NCBI GenBank assembly: GCA_964344565.1
Contig: CAYFNT010000019.1
Coordinates: forward strand, 6,196-70,195
Source of the DNA: an uncultured bacterium
GTDB taxonomy: Bacteria; Krumholzibacteriota; Krumholzibacteriia; JACNKJ01
Length of the DNA: 64,000 bases
Direction: 5' to 3'
The translations under genes and the position numbers were made by a program. How positions within the stretch are numbered: position 1 is the first letter of the stretch; each line of letters opens with the position of its first letter. This document shows positions 18,603 to 52,301 of this stretch, one piece after another. Under the pieces are notes generated by a model. It was not told the origin of the DNA, did no database searches, and saw nothing but the letters and a program-made list of their open reading frames with translations.

Positions 18603-18679
18603 GAGTCGCCAGTCTCCAGTCGCCAGTCGCCAGTCTCCAGTCGCCAGTCTCCAGTCGCCAGTCTCCAGTCGCGAGTCGC
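18603..18679. repeat. Heptanucleotide tandem repeat, 11 units (AGTCGCC/AGTCTCC)
   Basis: Direct tandem array (agtcgcc agtctcc)xN. It fills the whole intergenic space between the stop of the T9SS protein gene and the ATG of the macro-domain gene. Confidence 0.9.
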
Positions 18680-18682
18680 CGG

Positions 18683-20483: not shown

Positions 20484-20518
20484 GAGAACTGAGAACTGAG
20501 AACTGAGAACCGCGAACC
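20484..20518. repeat. Heptanucleotide tandem repeat, 5 units (GAGAACT), plus a CTCAGTC doublet at 20531-20544
   Basis: gagaact x3, gagaacc, gcgaacc, lying 43-77 nt upstream of the start of the T9SS protein gene. Confidence 0.85.
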
Positions 20519-20528
20519 CTGTGGGATC

Positions 20529-21770
20529 TCAGTCCTCAGTCCGCAGATTTGAGTTCAATATCTCCGCCAGCTTGCGCGCGTTAGCGACCATGTCGTACTC
20601 GGATTCCACGGTCTTGCGGGCGGCACGCGCAGCGCTCTCTCTCGCTTCGGGATGGCTGAGCGCGAAGCTCATGGCCTCGGCGATGGCCTCGGGACTGGAG
20701 CTGTCCACCAGCCATCCGCTGCTGTTCTCGGCGACCAGCTCGGGCAGGCCCGTCACCCTGGGCGCGAGCACGGGCGTGCCGCCGGCCATGGCCTCCATGA
20801 CGGCCACGGGAATGCCCTCGCTGTGGCTGGTGAGTACGAAGAGATCGGCCTCGGCGATGAGCCCCGCGATTTCGCCGTGATCCAGAAGACCGAGGAAGTG
20901 CACGCGGTCGGCGATGCCGAGGTCCTTCGCCATCGTTTCGAGCATGGCGCGGCGGCCGTCCTGATCCTTGCCGACGAGGTCCAGGCGGAACCCGATGCCC
21001 CGCTCGGCGAGAATGCCGCAGGCCGCGAGCAGTCCTTCGTGATTCTTGATGGCGTAGAGGGAGGCCGTGCAGAGAAGCTTGAAGGGGCCCTCACGCCGGG
21101 CGACGCGCTCGCGGTAGGGGAAGTCGTCCAGCAGGATGCCCGTGCGATTCACGAAAATCTTCGAGCCGTCGACATCAGGGCGGAGCTCCATCATCACGCG
21201 CTTGTTGTAGTCGGACACGGCCACGATGAAGTCGGCCGCGCCCACCTTGCTCCGCAGGCTGAAGCGGCTGGGTTCGTGGACGGTGGCACTGCCGTGGGCG
21301 GTGAAGCTGAAGCTCTGGCCGTTGAGCTTCGCGGCGGCCAGGGCGGCCGTGGCCGCCTTGTAGGCGAAGTGGGCGTGCACGTGGGCGTCTTCACCTTTGA
21401 TCGCCCGCGCGAACGCGATGCCGTGGAGCATGTGCGCCACGCCCTTGATGCCCTTGCTCAGCCGCTGAGTTCTGTTGTCGAAGGGGACGCGCAGCAGAAG
21501 ATTCAGGAGGGCGAGGGGCCTTCGGACCAGATAGTGAAATGCGGCGCCGAGGAGTCGGCCGGGGGGCACGGGCCGCAGGGTGCGCGTGCGTTCGAGAAAG
21601 GGACGGGCCTCCTCGGGACAGTACTCGTGGGGCAGGAGGGACCAGATCTCGATCCGGAAGCCGGCTTCCTCGAGCACGCGGATCTCGTTGTAGACGAAGT
21701 TGAGGGTGTTGGCGGGAAAGCGCTCGATCACATAGATCAAACGTTTGCCACTGGACTTCTCGCCGGTCAT
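20529..21770 (-). CDS. Glycosyltransferase family 4 (GT-B)
   Basis: C-terminal EGIPVAVMEAMAGGTPVLAPRVTGLPELV motif typical of glycos_transf_1. Confidence 0.8.
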   Translation of the reverse strand: MTGEKSSGKRLIYVIERFPANTLNFVYNEIRVLEEAGFRIEIWSLLPHEYCPEEARPFLERTRTLRPVPPGRLLGAAFHYLVRRPLALLNLLLRVPFDNRTQRLSKGIKGVAHMLHGIAFARAIKGEDAHVHAHFAYKAATAALAAAKLNGQSFSFTAHGSATVHEPSRFSLRSKVGAADFIVAVSDYNKRVMMELRPDVDGSKIFVNRTGILLDDFPYRERVARREGPFKLLCTASLYAIKNHEGLLAACGILAERGIGFRLDLVGKDQDGRRAMLETMAKDLGIADRVHFLGLLDHGEIAGLIAEADLFVLTSHSEGIPVAVMEAMAGGTPVLAPRVTGLPELVAENSSGWLVDSSSPEAIAEAMSFALSHPEARESAARAARKTVESEYDMVANARKLAEILNSNLRTED

Positions 21771-43771: not shown

Positions 43772-43921
43772 GGGAGCTCCTTTCGTAAACAGGATCGCCA
43801 GGTCAAGTTAATCGGGATGGGTAAGTTGCTCAAGTAGGAAACATGGAATGGGTCTGTACTGGAATGGGATCTCCCCCTCCGAACGGAGGGGGAGCGTTTC
43901 ATTTCACCTGGATAGTCGCCG

Positions 43922-45912: not shown

Positions 45913-46023
45913 GCGGGATCCTCCTTAGGAAAACTTCAATGTTGGGAGAAGCAGAGCCTAGATCGCGGGTTTTGGGAAGGGAAAACTCGGCCGAATCCGA
46001 AGCCATAGCCATGGCCATGGCAT

Positions 46024-46054
46024 GAAAAAACCCTCCCCCGGCTGTGGGGGAGGG
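46024..46054 (-). terminator. Rho-independent terminator of the 2-oxoacid:ferredoxin oxidoreductase operon
   Basis: On the minus strand ccctccccc-acagcc-gggggaggg is followed by TTTTTTCATG. Perfect 9-bp stem. Confidence 0.8.
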
Positions 46055-46080
46055 TTCAGTTGCTCCAGCTAAGGCTATGG

Positions 46081-47508
46081 TTATAGCTGCTCTACGTATT
46101 TCATTCCGGCGCTCAAGGCCTCGATATTCGCATCCACCATGTTCGCCCGCTTGATGGCCTTGGGGATGGTTTGCTCCATGCCCTCGCGGGTGAGGATGCC
46201 CGTCTTCGCCATGTAGGCGCCGGTCATCACCGTGTTGGCCATGCGCGTGTTGCCCAGATCGTTGGCGATCTGGGTGGCCGGCACGGCCACGACCTCGATG
46301 TCCTCGCGCTTGGGCTCCACGTCGATGATGGTGGAGTCGTACATGAGCAGTCCGCCGGCCTTCACGTCGGGCTCGAATTTCTCGAGGCTGGGGCGGTTGA
46401 AGGCCATGAGCACGTCGGGATGGCTCACCGTCGGGCTGCCGATCTCGTGCTCGCTGATGTTCACGAAGCAGTAGGCGGTGCCGCCGCGCATCTCCGGGCC
46501 GTAGCTCGGGATCCAGCTGCTGTGGTAGCCCTGCTCCATGGCCGCGTTGGCCAGCATGGCCCCGGCCGAGAGGATGCCCTGCCCGCCGAAGCCCGCGAGT
46601 TTGATGCTGGGATTCTTGTAGCTGTCCGACTTGTACTCGCCGGGAAAGAGCTTGGGATCGGGAACGTTGAGGTCCAGGGCCTCGATGACTTCCTCGTCGC
46701 TGGTCTCGCGCTTCTTGCGATGCCAGGCCTCCCGCTCGTCCCGAATGTCCTTCTTCACGCCGAGGGGGAAGAAGGGCTTCATGTGCTCGTGCATCCAGTC
46801 GTACTGGTCCTTGGGATCCACCTTCCAGCCCGAGGGACAGGCGCTGAGCATCTCGACCATGGAGAAGCCCTTGCCGTCCATCTGGCACTGCAGGGCCTTG
46901 CGGATGGCCATGCGCGTCTTGGCGATGCTCTTGTTGTCCCAGACCGCCGTGCGTTCCACGTAGCTGGGACCGTCGAGGGTGGCCATGAGTTCGCAGACCT
47001 TCATGGGCGGGCCCTCGTTGTCCTCGTCGCGGCCGTAGGGGGTGGTGGTCGTCCTCATACCCGGCAGGGTGGTCGGCGCCATCTGTCCACCGGTCATGCC
47101 GTAGATGGCATTGTTCACGAAGAACACGGTGATGTGCTCGCCGCGGTTGGCCGCCTGCAGGATGTTGTTGCCGCCGATGGCCGCCAGGTCGCCGTCGCCC
47201 TGATAGCTCACGACGATGGCGTTGGGATTGGCGCGCTTGAGGGCTGTGGCCACCGCGGGTGCGCGGCCGTGGGCCACCTGGATGTTGCCCGTCTTGAAGT
47301 AGTAGTAGACGAAGACCGAGCATCCCACCGGGCTCACCATGATCACGCGTTCCTGGATGCCCAGATCCTCGATGGCCTCGGCGATGAGCTTGTGGATGAC
47401 CCCGTGTCCGCATCCCGGACAGTAGTGCGTGTTGCTCTTGTCGCCCGGCTTGCGCTCGAACTTCTCGTAGAAGCCCTTGGGACGTTCCAGAACAAGCTTC
47501 TTGGGCAT
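46081..47508 (-). CDS. 2-oxoacid:ferredoxin oxidoreductase beta subunit (TPP-binding) fused to the gamma subunit
   Basis: HYCPGCGHG, GDGD...GGNN TPP motif and GMTGGQ, then a C-terminal gamma-like domain (GFGGQGILSAG). 475 aa. Confidence 0.9.
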   Translation of the reverse strand: MPKKLVLERPKGFYEKFERKPGDKSNTHYCPGCGHGVIHKLIAEAIEDLGIQERVIMVSPVGCSVFVYYYFKTGNIQVAHGRAPAVATALKRANPNAIVVSYQGDGDLAAIGGNNILQAANRGEHITVFFVNNAIYGMTGGQMAPTTLPGMRTTTTPYGRDEDNEGPPMKVCELMATLDGPSYVERTAVWDNKSIAKTRMAIRKALQCQMDGKGFSMVEMLSACPSGWKVDPKDQYDWMHEHMKPFFPLGVKKDIRDEREAWHRKKRETSDEEVIEALDLNVPDPKLFPGEYKSDSYKNPSIKLAGFGGQGILSAGAMLANAAMEQGYHSSWIPSYGPEMRGGTAYCFVNISEHEIGSPTVSHPDVLMAFNRPSLEKFEPDVKAGGLLMYDSTIIDVEPKREDIEVVAVPATQIANDLGNTRMANTVMTGAYMAKTGILTREGMEQTIPKAIKRANMVDANIEALSAGMKYVEQL

Positions 47509-47517
47509 GGCTTCCTC

Positions 47518-48585
47518 CTAAGCGCTTAGGTCGGCGGCGGTGCCGAGATGGGATTTGGCGACTTCGTAGACTTCCTCGACCGTGGGCACGTTGCCGCCCT
47601 GCCGTCCGTAGAAATCCACCGGGATGGCTCCGTTCACCACCAGCCTGACGTCGTTGACCATCTGTCCGAAATTCAGCTCCACCGCGAGAATCTTATCGGC
47701 CGTCTCGACCACGTCGGCGATGGCCTTCTTGGGGAAGGGCCAGAGAGTCTTCGGTCGCAGCAGGCCGATCTTCAGCCCTTCCTCGCGGGCGCGATCGACC
47801 ACCGAGCGCAGGATGCGGCTCACGATGCCGAAGCCCATGAGCACGAGCTCGGCGTCTTCGGTCCGGTAGGCCTCGTAGCGAACTTCCTCTTCCTCGATCT
47901 TGCGATACTTGGCCTGGAGCTTGGCGTTGTGCGCCTCGAGTTCGTCGGTGTCCAGGAAGATGGAACTCACGAGGCTGTCGTCCATGCGGAAGCCCTCCTC
48001 GAGGGCCCACTCCTTGCGGGGAAGGGGAGGCACGGGCTCGCCGAACTCCACGGGCTCCATCATCTGTCCGATGTAGCCGTCGGTGAGGAGCACCACCGGA
48101 TTGCGCCACTTGTCGGCCAGATCGAAGGCCAGGCGCGTGAAGTCGGCCATCTCCTGGGCGCCGTTGGGAGCCAATACGATGAGTTCGTAGCTGCCGTGTC
48201 CACCGCCCTTGACGATCTGGTTGTAGTCGCTCTGCTCAGGCGCGATGTTGCCCAGGCCCGGGCCGCCGCGCATGATGTCGACCAGCAGGCAGGGCAGTTC
48301 GGCGCCGGCCAGGTAGCTCAGGCCCTCCTGCTTCAGGCTGATGCCCGGCGAAGAGCTGGCGGTCATGGTGCGTTCGCCGGCCGCCGCCGCGCCGTAGACC
48401 ATGTTGATGGACGCGATCTCGCTCTCGGCCTGCAGGAAGGTGCGTCCCAGACGCGGGAAGAGCATGGCTCCCGCGTGGGCGATCTCGCTGGCCGGCGTGA
48501 TGGGGTATCCGTAGAAGGACTGGCAACCCGCGAGCAGGGCGGCCTTCACCACCGCTTCGTTGCCCTTGATCAATTCCTTGGCCAT
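47518..48585 (-). CDS. 2-oxoacid:ferredoxin oxidoreductase alpha subunit
   Basis: [36 protein letters not shown]-terminus typical of KorA/PorA. GAGGAG RBS. Start trimmed from the track ORF. Confidence 0.85.
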
Positions 48586-48593
48586 GGATCTCC

Positions 48594-48839
48594 TCAGGCG
48601 GCGTCGTACTCGGCGCCCTTCTTGTAGACAGTGATGGCGGCGGGCTCGGGACAGGCATAGAAGCACATGCCGCATCCGGTGCAGCCTTCACCCGTGTAGT
48701 CGGCGGGGTGGTATCCCTTGGAATTGAAGCCGTCGATCTGGAAGAGCACGTCCTGGGGGCAGGAAATGACGCAGAGGCCGCAGCCCTTGCAGTGCTCGGG
48801 GGAGACGACTGTGATGGCTTCTTCGAGAATCTTGCTCAT
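48594..48839 (-). CDS. Two-cluster 4Fe-4S ferredoxin (delta subunit of the 2-oxoacid:ferredoxin oxidoreductase)
   Basis: [12 protein letters not shown] and [12 protein letters not shown] motifs. 81 aa, GGAGG RBS. Confidence 0.8.
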
Positions 48840-48935
48840 GGGGCCTCCGTCAAAGATGGCTTTTCGGAAGGAATACGCCTCGGGGCCGGCGGGAAGCATT
48901 CAGGAGAAAGCGACCTGAATTCCGCATGTCCGTTC

Positions 48936-48964
48936 AAAGTATGGCAATCAACGCAAACTGTCAA
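48936..48964 (-). promoter_or_regulatory. Sigma70-like promoter (TTGACA-17-TACTTT on the minus strand) for the ferredoxin oxidoreductase operon
   Basis: The minus-strand sequence reads TTGACAgtttgcgttgattgccaTACTTT, about 95 nt upstream of the delta-subunit ATG. Confidence 0.45.
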
Positions 48965-49054
48965 GATAGCCAGGTTTAGCCGAGCTTCTCCGCTATTGGA
49001 CAAGCCAAGACGATTCAACCAGTTAACAAATAGCACAATTAAGGCGGGAATACA

Positions 49055-49152
49055 AGGAACTGTGGACTCAGAACTGTGGACTCAGAACTGTGAACTGAGA
49101 ACTGTGAACTCGGAACTGGGAACTCAGAACTAGGAACTCGGAACTCAGAACT
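49055..49152. repeat. Heptanucleotide tandem repeat, 14 units (NNGAACT)
   Basis: aggaact gtggact cagaact gtggact cagaact gtgaact gagaact gtgaact cggaact gggaact cagaact aggaact cggaact cagaact. Confidence 0.9.
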
Positions 49153-49160
49153 TATGAATT

Positions 49161-49200
49161 GGCCCTTCCCCGAGTGCGGGGAAGGGTTTCTCTTGTTCAC
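49161..49200. terminator. GC hairpin cccttccccg-agtg-cggggaaggg followed by TTTCTCTTGTT (terminator-like). Central element between the direct and inverted heptad arrays.
   Basis: Perfect 10-bp stem. T-rich tract on the plus strand. Confidence 0.5.
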
Positions 49201-49235
49201 AGTTCTCAGTTCTAAGTTCTAAGTTCTAAGTTCTA
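49201..49235. repeat. Inverted-orientation heptanucleotide repeat, 5 units (AGTTCTN), abutting the ParA stop codon
   Basis: agttctc agttcta x4. These are the reverse complement of the NNGAACT units at 49055-49152. Confidence 0.9.
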
Positions 49236-50285
49236 ATGCCATCCCTCTTCGACGCTGCCTTCGTACTCGTCGAGATTCGGACGGGTCACCTTGCAGGCGT
49301 CCGAGTCGCTCTCCTCGACCTCGTCCAGGGAGATGATGTCGTCCTCGGGGCTTCCGCTGTTGCCCTTGCCTCCGAGTTCGTCCTCATCCTGCAGCAGGAT
49401 CTCGCCGGTGGCCGTGAGCACGGGCGAAGGCTTGGTCACGGTGGAGATGGCCTCGGCCAGCACGCTCTCGCGTACTTCTTCGGCCGACGCAGCCGGACGC
49501 TGTTCCGCGCGCCGCTCTGTGACGATGCTCGCGAGCACCTCGTCGGCGAGGGATGCGAAGGCCTGCGCGGCCGCGCCCGCGCGATTGAAGAAGTTCACGG
49601 GCTTGCCGCGCTGGGCGACTTCGGCGAGGCGCACGCTGCGGGGCACCTGGGTCTCGAAGACCTTGCCGGGATAGGCTTCGCGCACGCGCGAGGTCACCGA
49701 ATTGGCCATGCGCGTACGCAGGTCGACCTGGTTGAGCACGATGCCGGCGAGTTCGGGCAGGGGCTGATCGCCCTCGCGCATCTCGTCCATGGCGTCGAAG
49801 AGACGCGGCAGGGCCTGGAAGGCGAGTTCCTCCACCTGCAGGGGCACGATGAGCGAGTCGGCCGCCATGAGCGCCGAGGTCGTCAGGGGGCCCAGGTTCG
49901 GAGGACAGTCGAGCATCACGAAGTCATAGTCCTTCTTCACCGGGGCCAGGCCTTCGGCGAGGCTCTCCGGCGAGATGGCCGCCCAGGTGAGGAGCTGTTC
50001 CTCCTCGTCGCGGCTCCAGACGTTGCTCGTGATGAAGTCGAGATTGTTGAGACCGGTCGGCTGGATGCTCCTGGCCGGACTGCCGTCAGGATCGAAGAAA
50101 TCAAGCAGTCCGAAATCCACCGAGAAGCGCTCCTGACCGAAGCTGCTGATCACACCACACTGAGGGTCCACGCCGACGACGAGGCAACTGAAGCCCTTGT
50201 CGGCGAGTGCGGCAGCGAGATTAACCGCCACCGTCGTTTTGCCCACCCCGCCTTTGGGGCAGACGACAGCCAACGAGCGTCCCAT
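49233..50285 (-). CDS. parA: ParA/MinD-family ATPase with an acidic C-terminal extension of about 100 aa
   Basis: Deviant Walker A CPKGGVGKTT. The C-terminal region is rich in E/D (DEDELGG...EEDDIISLDEVEESDSD). Confidence 0.8.
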   Translation of the reverse strand: MGRSLAVVCPKGGVGKTTVAVNLAAALADKGFSCLVVGVDPQCGVISSFGQERFSVDFGLLDFFDPDGSPARSIQPTGLNNLDFITSNVWSRDEEEQLLTWAAISPESLAEGLAPVKKDYDFVMLDCPPNLGPLTTSALMAADSLIVPLQVEELAFQALPRLFDAMDEMREGDQPLPELAGIVLNQVDLRTRMANSVTSRVREAYPGKVFETQVPRSVRLAEVAQRGKPVNFFNRAGAAAQAFASLADEVLASIVTERRAEQRPAASAEEVRESVLAEAISTVTKPSPVLTATGEILLQDEDELGGKGNSGSPEDDIISLDEVEESDSDACKVTRPNLDEYEGSVEEGWH

Positions 50286-50294
50286 GTAACTCCT

Positions 50295-50309
50295 TGAATT
50301 GTATTCAAT
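50295..50309. promoter_or_regulatory. Palindrome TTGAAT-tgt-ATTCAA in the parA/P-type-ATPase divergent region. Candidate operator.
   Basis: Perfect 6-bp inverted repeat 10 nt upstream of the parA ATG. A second palindrome CCCTCgGAGGG follows. Confidence 0.35.
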
Positions 50310-50438
50310 TGCATGTATGCCTGAGATGTCCCTCGGAGGGAGCGCAGATATTATCCCGTCACCTTTTCATTGGCAAGCAGTTTCCCCTCATGCAGCATGT
50401 GCATCGTGCGAATTATCGCGCCGAGCCGAGAAGGGACC

Positions 50439-52301
50439 ATGGCCGAGATCCGACTCACGGTGAAGGGGCTGGCGGGATGGGAGGACCCTCCCCGCGTGGC
50501 TCGCATTCTGCGCGGGGTTCCGGCCGTGGAGGACGTGTCGGTGGACGCCGCCAGCGGGCAGGCCTGGGCGCGCGGTCGCGGGCACCTGCCGCTTCTCGGC
50601 ATGCTGGAAGCGCTTCACCGCGAGGGTTACGAGGCGGAACCCGCCACCGAGGACACGCTCTTCCCATCCATCTTCCGCGACGAGCAGACGGTGCTCCGCA
50701 GGATGCGCGGCGCGCTTCTGTGGACCCTCGCCCTGCTGCTTGTGGATCTCCTGATGCCCGCCGGGCGCATCGCCCTGACCGCGGGGATGCTTCTGGTGCT
50801 GGGCTTTCTGTCCACCACCGGGCGAGCCCTCTGGCGGACCGCCGTGCCAATGCTGCGTCGTGGACGTTGGGGCGAGACGCCCCGCGCCGCCATCGCGCTT
50901 CTGCTGCTCAGCGTTTCGCTGCCCCTCGCCTGGATGAACGGCGAACAGGTCTTCTTCTCCCTGCCGGCCCTGGTCGGCACCCTGCTCCTGCTCTCGCGAT
51001 GGCTGGAGCTTCGCTGGAGGCGCGTCCTGCGCAACGATCTGAAGGACGGCGACTCGCGCGCTTCCATCTTGCAGGAAGCCTTCGGCGGCGCCGACGCCCC
51101 CGAGGGGGCCAACAAACGGGTGGGGGACGCGCTGGCCATGGCCCTGCCCATCCTGCTGCTGCTCTGGCTGGCGATGTCGCTCGTCCTGCACTTGGGAAGC
51201 GCGGCGATTCTGCGCGGCCTGGCCGCCGTCCTTCTGGCGGGAGGCAGCCGCGGGCTGACCCTGTCCTATCCCTCGGTGATGGTGGCCGGACTGACGCGGG
51301 CGTTCTCCTTCGGACTGGTTTTTCGCCGGGCCCGCATCCTGCGGAACTTCCATCGCGCCGACATCCTGGCCACCGATCGGGTGGGCGTACTCACCCGAGC
51401 TCAGGCCGAGGTGGAGTCGGTGAAGGTGCTGGGCAGTTCTTCCACCGATCGAATCTACTCGGAGGCGGCGGGGGCCCTGGCCGAGGCGGCCCATCCCCTG
51501 CTTCAGGCTCTTCATCGTTTCCTTTCGGATCGGGCCGAGACCGAGAGCCATCCGCTCTCGGTGATCAGACGGCCGGGCGGCGGCCTCGAGGCGGAGACCG
51601 CCGGACGTAATCTGCTCATCGGACATCCCTGGTTCCTGCAGCGGGAAGGGGTGGACCTCGAGGAGGTGCGCGAAGTCCTGGAGCACTTCGGCGAACAGGG
51701 ATTGTCCATCGTGACCCTCGCGGTGGACGGAAAGATGCGCGCGGTTTTCGGCCTTCGCGTTGACGCGCGCCCCGAAGCGCCGAGCCTCATACGGCGCATC
51801 GCCGAGTTCGGTCTCGCGCCCGTCCTGCTCACCGGCGAGAGCGAGGGCCTCGCCCGCCGGGTGGCCGAGAGCAACGGCATGAGCGAGTTCCACGGCGGAC
51901 TGGGAAGCGACGAACGCGCCCGGGTGCTGCGGGAGAAGACCCAGGCCGGAGCGAAGGTGGCTGCCGTGGGCATCGGCAGTCACGACGCGCCCGTGCTGGC
52001 GGCGGCCGACTTCCCCGTGTCCCTCGGCCCTGAGGCTCCCGCGGAGAAGCCCGGGCTCATCCTTCCCTCGGGACGGCCGGCCGATCTCCTGGACGCCCTG
52101 GCCTTCTCGCGCCATGTGGACGCACTTCGCCGGCAGAACTTCTGGCTCGCCGGCGGACTGCTTCTGCTCGCCCTCATCCTGGCCTTCTCCGGACTCCTCG
52201 GCCCTCTCGGATCCACGGCCATGCGCGTCGTCGCCGTGCAGGCCCCCCTTGCCAACAGTCTGCGCACCCACTCCTTCCGCTTCGAATCCTCCTCTCAGTA
52301 G
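50439..52301 (+). CDS. P1B-type (heavy-metal) ATPase homolog with degenerate catalytic motifs (probable pseudo-ATPase)
   Basis: HMA-like N-terminal domain without CxxC (GLAGWED). TM6 reads GSRGLTLSYP where CPC is expected. DRVGVLT replaces DKTGTLT. GIGSHDAPVLAAAD replaces GDGxNDAPALAAAD. LLTGES replaces MLTGDN. The actuator domain is largely missing. Confidence 0.7.
   Translation: MAEIRLTVKGLAGWEDPPRVARILRGVPAVEDVSVDAASGQAWARGRGHLPLLGMLEALHREGYEAEPATEDTLFPSIFRDEQTVLRRMRGALLWTLALLLVDLLMPAGRIALTAGMLLVLGFLSTTGRALWRTAVPMLRRGRWGETPRAAIALLLLSVSLPLAWMNGEQVFFSLPALVGTLLLLSRWLELRWRRVLRNDLKDGDSRASILQEAFGGADAPEGANKRVGDALAMALPILLLLWLAMSLVLHLGSAAILRGLAAVLLAGGSRGLTLSYPSVMVAGLTRAFSFGLVFRRARILRNFHRADILATDRVGVLTRAQAEVESVKVLGSSSTDRIYSEAAGALAEAAHPLLQALHRFLSDRAETESHPLSVIRRPGGGLEAETAGRNLLIGHPWFLQREGVDLEEVREVLEHFGEQGLSIVTLAVDGKMRAVFGLRVDARPEAPSLIRRIAEFGLAPVLLTGESEGLARRVAESNGMSEFHGGLGSDERARVLREKTQAGAKVAAVGIGSHDAPVLAAADFPVSLGPEAPAEKPGLILPSGRPADLLDALAFSRHVDALRRQNFWLAGGLLLLALILAFSGLLGPLGSTAMRVVAVQAPLANSLRTHSFRFESSSQ

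Follow-up and report, generated by a model that had tools for sequence, protein, structure and literature searches.

The repeat element between the ParA gene and the OFOR operon

The stretch of DNA analysed here (the window) comprises 64,000 nt of an uncultured bacterium (contig CAYFNT010000019.1, positions 6,196 to 70,195 of the forward strand; assembly GCA_964344565.1). Between the stop codon of a gene for a ParA/MinD-family ATPase and the promoter of a 2-oxoacid:ferredoxin oxidoreductase (OFOR) operon, it carries an element in which two facing arrays of 7-nt repeats (heptads) bracket a GC-rich hairpin. Coordinates are those of the window, and gene sense refers to the minus strand, which encodes both the ParA and the OFOR genes. 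A previous interpretation made from the letters alone (the sequence-only reading) had described 14 direct heptads at 49055-49152, a 10-bp GC stem with a T tract and 5 inverted heptads at 49201-49235, the last of them overlapping the ParA stop codon. Inspection of the sequence places each of these features exactly where it had been reported, the stop TAG (49235-49233) being how the first unit, TAGAACT, begins when read in gene sense. From the ParA gene towards the OFOR operon, the locus contains:

49233-50285, minus strand: gene for a ParA/MinD-family ATPase, 350 amino acids (aa), with Pfam matches to AAA_31, CbiA and ParA in its translation
49194-49235, minus strand: ParA-proximal array, in gene sense four TAGAACT, one GAGAACT and one GTGAACA (5 clean units and 1 degenerate)
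49161-49188, no strand assigned: GC hairpin with a perfect 10-bp stem, CCCTTCCCCG / CGGGGAAGGG, and a terminator-like match on the plus strand
49055-49159, plus strand: ParA-distal array, 14 heptads (12 NNGAACT and 2 GTGGACT) and a degenerate TATGAAT; Tandem Repeats Finder (TRF) periods of 7, 14 and 21
48965-49054, minus strand: block upstream of the OFOR promoter, including GCTATTTGTTAAC, conserved among relatives when their sequences are set side by side
48936-48964, minus strand: probable OFOR promoter by sequence, TTGACA-17-TACTTT, nearly invariant in relatives
48594-48839, minus strand: first gene of the OFOR operon, an 81-aa 2x[4Fe-4S] delta subunit (ferredoxin-like) with matches to Pfam Fer4 families

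Read in gene sense, the ParA stop codon opens a succession of six NNGAACT units, an A-rich stretch, the GC hairpin, CCAATTCATA and fourteen AGTYCNN units, beyond which come the 90-bp conserved block, the TTGACA-17-TACTTT promoter, the 5′ untranslated region (UTR) and the OFOR start. On the plus strand, the units of the distal array (49055-49152) follow each other head to tail as AGGAACT, GTGGACT, CAGAACT, GTGGACT, CAGAACT, GTGAACT, GAGAACT, GTGAACT, CGGAACT, GGGAACT, CAGAACT, AGGAACT, CGGAACT and CAGAACT, with TATGAAT as a degenerate 15th unit directly after them (49153-49159). The GAACT core, which had been described as invariant, is therefore kept in 12 of the 14 units, those at 49062 and 49076 reading GTGGACT. 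The proximal array, seen on the same strand, starts with a degenerate TGTTCAC (49194-49200) and continues with AGTTCTC and four copies of AGTTCTA (49201-49235). Between both arrays, the stem halves (49163-49172 and 49177-49186) enclose a 4-nt loop, AGTG, two G-T pairs lengthen the stem to 12 pairs, and a T-rich tail, TTTCTCTTGTT (49187-49197), is found 3′ of the stem on the plus strand only.

The heptad arrays (14 and 5-6 units) reached TRF scores of 65-122, and the proximal one was resolved as 5.1 copies of a period of 7 with 96% matches. In the distal array, the additional periods of 14 and 21 nt, together with the presence of perfect two-unit duplications, indicate that blocks of two and three units were duplicated (block slippage). 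The motif GAACTNNGAACTNNGAACT, with at most one mismatch, matched 17 times in the window against 0.01 times expected from shuffles, which excludes a chance origin of the arrays. The best inverted pair joins a 47-nt arm within 49055-49159 to positions 49195-49241 with 81% complementarity, and more generally the inverted repeats that bracket the core span 39-47 nt and are about 80% complementary.

A mis-assembly, which the sequence-only reading had admitted as grounds for discarding the element, is excluded, since six contigs, which stem from two assembly sources and four runs (ERR2281799, ERR2281800, ERR2281801 and ERR2281803), agree in all 424 nt from the end of ParA to the start of OFOR. At the level of these six assemblies from four samples, no difference in repeat number or orientation is visible either. 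The core hairpin was also searched as a possible dispersed motif, of the kind of repetitive extragenic palindromic (REP) sequences or miniature inverted-repeat transposable elements, and no second copy with up to 3 mismatches was found in the window, where just loosely similar CCCTCC..GGAGGG stems occur, at 43.9 and 46.0 kb. Positions 48000-50000 gave no Rfam match at E <= 1. Together with two other arrays described below, the element makes up the three heptad loci of the window, all of which are intergenic.

Predicted folding

Both strands of the element fold far better than their shuffled counterparts, at -89.2 and -85.8 kcal/mol (z-scores of -7.3 and -8.1). The earlier suggestion that the direct and inverted arrays can pair into a long imperfect hairpin is supported by these predictions, in which the repeat arms draw the stem out to about 50 bp. 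Four relatives (L004, L007, L010 and L136, see below) fold likewise, with an extended hairpin of 40-55 bp that starts from the stop codon and reaches -46 to -63 kcal/mol (z -5 to -10). For a fifth one, L139, whose contig stops just past the hairpin, the central hairpin alone was predicted at -28 kcal/mol (z -2.6).

The same locus in related genomes

The homologous ParA-OFOR locus was gathered from relatives, and the contigs of L004, L007, L010 and L136 span the whole element. The region 3′ of the ParA gene contains in each case:

L004, ParA 91%: 6 heptads and about 5 heptads
L007, ParA 87%: degenerate left arm and nine hexamers AGTTCA
L010, ParA 85%: 5 heptads (TAGGACT, GGGGACT, GGGAACT, AGGAACT, GAGAACT) and about 4 degenerate ones
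L139, ParA 78%: degenerate heptads; the contig ends after the hairpin
L140, ParA 75%: no array, a different hairpin-like sequence 3′ of the stop; the contig ends soon after
L136, ParA 74%: hexamers in both arms (four TTGAAC and four GTTCAA)

The relatives with element-spanning contigs, which cover 74-91% ParA identity, share a common order: the first unit contains the TAG and opens an array of GAAC type, next to which stand a GC hairpin with a CCCTCC..GGAGGG stem and its T tract, and an inverted array of GTTC type then leads to the promoter. The promoter and the 5′ UTR downstream are almost invariant, whereas the arrays hold anywhere from about 4 to 14 copies, and their unit and even their period (6 or 7 nt) change from one genome to another. 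A lack of any pattern of conservation or variation had been put forward as another reason to abandon the element, and what is observed is a kept layout with copy number, unit and period varying within it. Moreover, the type of unit tends to be matched between the arms of a genome, with hexamers on both sides in L136 and heptamers on both sides in L004 and in the window, and the structure has its beginning at the stop codon throughout, which indicates that the two arms evolve in concert.

More distant relatives offer a simpler picture. In L133 (51%) and L134 (54%), the latter being the Krumholzibacteriota metagenome-assembled genome GCA_016933175.1 and the closest named relative by ParA, the ParA-OFOR synteny is kept and a plain GC hairpin with a T tract follows ParA, without arrays. 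This distribution indicates that the hairpin is ancestral and that the arrays are a recent, lineage-specific growth around it. A search of metagenome contigs with the ParA protein gave a single irrelevant match at 30%. Among the relatives, the short contigs of L008, L009, L139 and L140 end inside or just past the repeat or hairpin element, which suggests either that short-read assembly regularly fails at such arrays or that the samples in question contain a mixture of copy numbers.

Orientation of the hairpin core

The ParA and OFOR genes both lie on the minus strand, whereas a T tract 3′ of the stem exists only on the plus strand, a mismatch that went unnoticed in the sequence-only reading. 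Over the 12 nt that follow the stem in ParA sense, there are 6-8 T in five relatives and 3 T in the window (CCAATTCATAAG), where it is the other strand that shows 8 T; that is, the U tract of an intrinsic terminator for ParA is present in the five relatives and lacking on the window's minus strand. Both flanks of the window stem (TATGA before it, TTTCTCTTGTT after it) match those of the relatives only when inverted, and then correspond to those of L010 (CTATGA and TTTCTTGTTTCG) and L139 (CATGAA and TTTCCTCTTGTT). Alignment scores of the cores were higher for the inverted than for the gene-sense comparison with L010 (27 versus 17.5), L139 (23 versus 13.5), L007 (21.5 versus 14.5) and L004 (18 versus 15). 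We consider it quite likely that the window core, hairpin and T tract together, is inverted with respect to its relatives, with recombination between the inverted arrays as presumably the simplest cause.

Origin and possible role of the element

Altogether, we are inclined, with moderate confidence, to regard the element as a terminator-type hairpin at the 3′ end of ParA whose flanks were expanded by slippage into complementary simple-sequence arrays. In this reading, the element belongs to the 3′ end of the ParA gene and not to the OFOR promoter. A GC-rich terminator-type hairpin would be ancestral at this position, and in one genus-level lineage both of its sides would have been amplified into tandem GAAC-containing units, of 7 nt in the window and of 6 nt in some relatives. 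With a left array that starts from the stop codon (TAGAACT) and a right array that is its reverse complement, the ParA transcript would fold into one long imperfect hairpin, which would likely serve to terminate or shield the ParA mRNA and to keep it apart from the OFOR promoter located about 90 bp further on. Replication slippage would add units to the arrays and remove them, one, two or three at a time, and the arms would stay complementary either because pairing is selected for or through hairpin-templated copying (quasi-palindrome template switching). Such copying between the arms of quasi-palindromes is an established process in the genetics of E. coli.

Several observations weigh against this picture or against parts of it. 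One arm is degenerate and the other well formed in L007 and L010, which makes strict selection for pairing doubtful and would allow the arrays to be neutral. An RNAalifold analysis of five hairpin cores found 0 compensatory pairs, although indels distorted its alignment and no weight was given to it. That the element is transcribed together with ParA, and that it terminates or stabilises the transcript, are things that we infer from sequence. As for the window itself, a T tract on the wrong strand would make the central hairpin alone a poor intrinsic terminator for ParA; the extended hairpin and the U-rich CCUUGUAUU... that comes after it may take over this function. The proposed inversion, in turn, draws on the short flanks of a near-palindrome, and the nearly palindromic core of L136 scores the opposite way (12 inverted versus 16 in gene sense). 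Finally, a second GC hairpin of the window, CTCCCCCTCC-GTTC-GGAGGGGGAG (43871-43894), lies 3′ of a minus-strand gene with its T-rich tail, CGTTTCATTT, on the plus strand only, so that hairpins in reverse orientation may be a recurrent trait of the genome and not the outcome of a single event.

Alternative explanations

The alternative that survives best takes the central hairpin as the whole functional terminator and the arrays as a neutral by-product, that is, as microsatellites produced by slippage and palindrome-templated copying beside a replication-stalling hairpin. This is a possibility to be kept in mind, though in our opinion a rather unlikely one. The speed with which copy number, unit and period change between close relatives speaks for it, as do the degenerate arm of L007 and L010, the absence of arrays in distant relatives that retain the genes and the hairpin, the similar behaviour of a different unit at 46 kb and the occurrence across phyla of all 16 NN variants of NNGAACT. 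Neutrality would explain less well that the arms remain complementary through a change of period (hexamers on both sides in L136, heptamers on both sides in L004 and the window), that the arrangement persists across 74-91% ParA identity, and that in Xanthomonas the type of array, single or inverted pair, is kept between species (PMC4692102). The first of these arguments is a weak one, since templated copying could produce complementary arms without selection.

The sequence-only reading had proposed as another option that the GAACT units are an array of binding sites for a regulator. Under this proposal, the repeated units would attract a regulator that acts on OFOR as a multimer. The 14-unit array does stop about 90 bp upstream of the -35 box of the conserved promoter, and heptameric direct repeats serve some regulators, to judge from the title of a work on SARP-LAL. 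Yet the comparison of relatives renders this proposal improbable: the promoter, the upstream block and the 5′ UTR are nearly invariant while the arrays range from about 4 degenerate units to 14, a period changed to 6 nt would not preserve a constant phase along the helix, and L133 and L134 have the same operon without arrays. Moreover, the GAACT family is also found between unrelated genes at 20.5 kb, and at the ParA-OFOR locus the arrays begin at the ParA stop codon, not at the promoter.

Even less probable is that the complementary arms invite flipping of the core, the window and its relatives being two states of an invertible, phase-variable terminator in which slippage or core inversion would set the read-through from ParA into the OFOR operon. 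If this were so, complementary microsatellite arms might more broadly be a general device to build and re-orient terminators in this group of bacteria. A different orientation of the core in the window and in five relatives, the 39-47-nt inverted repeats around it (about 80% complementary) and the contigs of L008, L009 and L139 that break inside the arrays speak for such a switch. On the other hand, copy number and orientation are identical in the six assemblies from four samples, which give no hint that switching continues; the neighbours are a P-type-ATPase-like gene and OFOR, with no recombinase gene beside the element; and a single past event accounts for the difference between species.

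We regard as very improbable, and to a similar degree, the two remaining explanations. One would see a small RNA on the plus strand, made of 14 heptads and a canonical terminator, which could act for instance as a multivalent sponge for an RNA-binding protein. The stem and T tract of the window are indeed oriented for termination on the plus strand, the 14 repeated motifs would be single-stranded and six of them contain GGA, and binding by S1, Csp or CsrA proteins was proposed by MacGregor for TAACTGA repeats (PMC4679880). However, no promoter-like site was found upstream on the plus strand and Rfam gave no match at E <= 1, all five close relatives have the terminator oriented as for ParA, which would make the RNA unique to the window genome, and its sequestration by pairing with the inverted array would occur only on transcriptional read-through. 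The other, a parS-like centromere for the adjacent ParA ATPase as in pSM19035, is suggested by contiguous heptads in both orientations immediately beside a ParA-family gene, but no small ribbon-helix-helix (RHH) or ParB-like gene flanks ParA (the intergenic open reading frames, ORFs, being implausible), the arrays lie 3′ of ParA and not over par promoters, they are absent in distant relatives with the same ParA in the same chromosomal synteny, their unit and period vary (the heptads are contiguous, with a loose consensus NNGRACT that relatives do not conserve), and the same heptads are present without ParA both at other places of the window and in many phyla.

Comparison with known repeat systems

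The element falls within the known class of intergenic heptameric simple-sequence repeats, to which it adds some traits of its own: it wraps a separate terminator hairpin, its period switches between 6 and 7 nt, and its core is probably inverted in the window. The closest parallel is given by the long simple-sequence repeats (LSSR) of Xanthomonas and Nostoc, together with the heptamers among the short tandemly repeated repetitive (STRR) sequences of cyanobacteria. Rehm et al. (2015) described intergenic arrays of GGGAATC in Xanthomonas and of GGGGA(C/T)T in Nostoc, often located 0-50 bp from stop codons or overlapping them, with 70-75 convergent pairs per Xanthomonas genome that have the potential to form stem-loops or cruciforms; the position and type of these arrays (single or pair) are conserved between species and their length varies (PMC4692102). 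The window element resembles them in its 7-nt unit, its intergenic location at or over a stop codon, the convergent pairing and a kept position with varying length between related genomes, and even the composition of the unit is similar (GGGAACT and GGGGACT are found here and in L010). In contrast, its unit NNG(A/G)ACT mostly lacks runs of G, so that a G-quadruplex is not expected, its paired arrays bracket a separate GC terminator hairpin, a 6-nt period appears in some relatives, and its host belongs to an uncultured lineage of the Fibrobacteres-Chlorobi-Bacteroidetes (FCB) superphylum near Krumholzibacteriota.

A second comparison concerns the TAACTGA direct repeats of marine Beggiatoaceae, Cyanobacteria and Bacteroidetes reported by MacGregor (2015), who cites Mrazek (2007) for heptamers as the most abundant class of long simple-sequence repeats and for polymerase slippage as their origin (PMC4679880). 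Both kinds of heptamer share AACT(GA), as in GAACTGA, both are intergenic, differ between strains in steps of 7 nt and are patchily distributed across phyla, and the array at 18604 in the window abuts a start codon, the typical position of TAACTGA. Their repeats are mostly short arrays of 2-6 copies, direct in all but one case among 170, placed just upstream of start codons, whereas the window element is an inverted pair at the 3′ end of a gene.

The likeness to intrinsic terminators, including bidirectional ones, resides in the GC-rich stem, the short loop, the T tract and a position directly after the stop codon that is kept in all relatives; the window differs in a T tract on the non-coding side of ParA and in a stem extended to about 50 bp by the repeat arms. 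REP sequences and the bacterial interspersed mosaic elements (BIME) that they compose are imperfect palindromes of 3′ UTRs or intergenic regions able to stabilise the upstream mRNA, a REP being a 35-40-nt sequence that a REP-associated tyrosine transposase (RAYT) mobilises and that is present in dispersed copies. The window element is likewise an imperfect palindrome in a 3′ UTR or intergenic region, but its core is unique in the window and its arms are local tandem arrays, not a dispersed unit. In the parS of pSM19035, 7-10 contiguous 7-bp repeats in direct and inverted orientation are bound by omega, an RHH ParB that activates the ParA protein delta (PMC9499535). Contiguous 7-bp repeats in both orientations beside a ParA-family gene are common to both systems, and the element differs in having no RHH or ParB partner gene, in arrays 3′ of the gene, in an unconserved unit and in its absence from relatives that keep ParA.

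In many bacterial genomes, intergenic heptameric repeats outnumber every other class of long simple-sequence repeat. For repeats of this kind, the locus provides a comparative series within a little-known uncultured lineage, which goes from a plain terminator to a terminator with complementary arms of 6- or 7-nt units and to expanded or inverted versions. Along this series the arrays nucleate at a stop codon and a terminator hairpin, the two arms change in concert and the unit itself is dispensable, which favours a structural or mutational origin over a sequence-specific protein site. From a practical point of view, such arrays break short-read assemblies and may be mistaken for arrays of regulatory sites or, when beside ParA genes, for centromeres.

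Other arrays in the window and across phyla

The window has 25 intergenic gaps that measure 48 nt or more, and strong 7-nt periodicity was found in only 3 of them. Besides the main element, these and related features are:

20484-20546, minus strand: second heptad palindrome, of the GAACT family; the plus strand reads four GAGAACT (plus GCGAACC), a 10-nt centre and two CTCAGTC
18604-18680, minus strand: third heptad array, with another unit; 11 copies of GGCGACT/GGAGACT in gene sense
45986-46083, minus strand: analogous hairpin with another unit; stop TAA, left arm CCATAGCC, hairpin CCCTCCCCC..GGGGGAGGG with T6, and a hexamer array

The heptad family had been considered common to the main element and to arrays starting at 20484 and 18603. 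This is correct for the former, given its four GAGAACT units, and holds only loosely for the latter, whose units (AGTCGCC/AGTCTCC on the plus strand, GGCGACT/GGAGACT on the minus strand) share just the 3′ (G)ACT. The palindrome at 20484-20546 sits between two minus-strand genes and folds at -36.7 kcal/mol (z -4.3). The array at 18604-18680 fills the 80-nt gap from a stop codon to the ATG (18602-18600) of a gene for a Macro-domain protein (O-acetyl-ADP-ribose deacetylase-like), ending 1 nt short of it, and its GGAG-bearing units could act as repeated Shine-Dalgarno-like sites. In L138, a 79% relative, this 18.6-kb array is absent and the upstream neighbour differs.

The structure at 45986-46083, inside the OFOR cluster, is a predicted extended hairpin of -51.5 kcal/mol (z -4.2), in which the hexamers CATGCC, ATGGCC, ATGGCT, ATGGCT, TCGGAT and TCGGCC (ATGGCY type) are complementary to the left arm. 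The unrelated unit of this hairpin supports a structural or mutational origin at terminator flanks over a role for the GAACT sequence. Its stem is almost identical to that of the ParA terminator of L010.

A scan of genomes revealed more than 120 stretches with at least 5 consecutive GAACT heptads, with all 16 NN variants of NNGAACT represented, in Acidobacteriota, Planctomycetota, Verrucomicrobiota, Bacteroidota, Cyanobacteriota, Chloroflexota, Latescibacterota, Gemmatimonadota and other phyla. An inverted partner within 200 bp accompanies 13 of 120 stretches, all with the polarity AGTTC...GAACT, the reverse of the GAACT...AGTTC of the window element. These opposite-polarity pairs (AGTTCNN...NNGAACT) come from Acidobacteriota, Gemmatimonadota, Planctomycetota and further groups, and comprise L013, L033, L067, L087, L092 and 8 more loci. 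Several of them sit between divergent genes, so that (GAGAACU)n would stand in either 5′ UTR, much as the 'forward' TAACTGA repeats do in Beggiatoaceae. An ORF-based description of the gene context of the 120 loci was abandoned, because greedy calling took wrong-strand ORFs in GC-rich DNA and miscalled the window itself.

Gene context and the OFOR leader

The 53-aa ORF that crosses all 14 units on the minus strand (49039-49200) was rejected as a gene, as it starts in the other array and is unconserved in relatives with hexamer arrays; by our own estimate, an open frame through such an array arises by chance in about 1 of 4 cases. A small ORF at 48836-49036, considered as an RHH partner of ParA, was also rejected for its implausible translation and its overlap with the conserved promoter and 5′ UTR. 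Among the ORFs around ParA, no ParB is adjacent, and a 70-82-aa ORF located just upstream of ParA in L133 and L134 is missing in the window.

A scan with the sigma-70 consensus gave no promoter over threshold on either strand, the probable OFOR promoter included. The 5′ UTR of the operon contains a hairpin, ATTCAGG-N9-CCTGAAT (48898-48920, minus strand), that is nearly invariant in relatives of 74-91% ParA identity, and the promoter, this hairpin and the upstream block with GCTATTTGTTAAC could be a conserved regulatory leader. The operon gene that follows the delta subunit matches POR_N and PFOR_II in Pfam. Upstream, the order of a SpoIIE phosphatase, a P-type-ATPase-like gene, ParA and the OFOR operon (49233-52301 in the window) is kept down to 51-54% identity. 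The ParA-like protein itself, found exactly in 7 contigs, has an acidic C-terminal extension and may be an orphan cargo-positioning ATPase.

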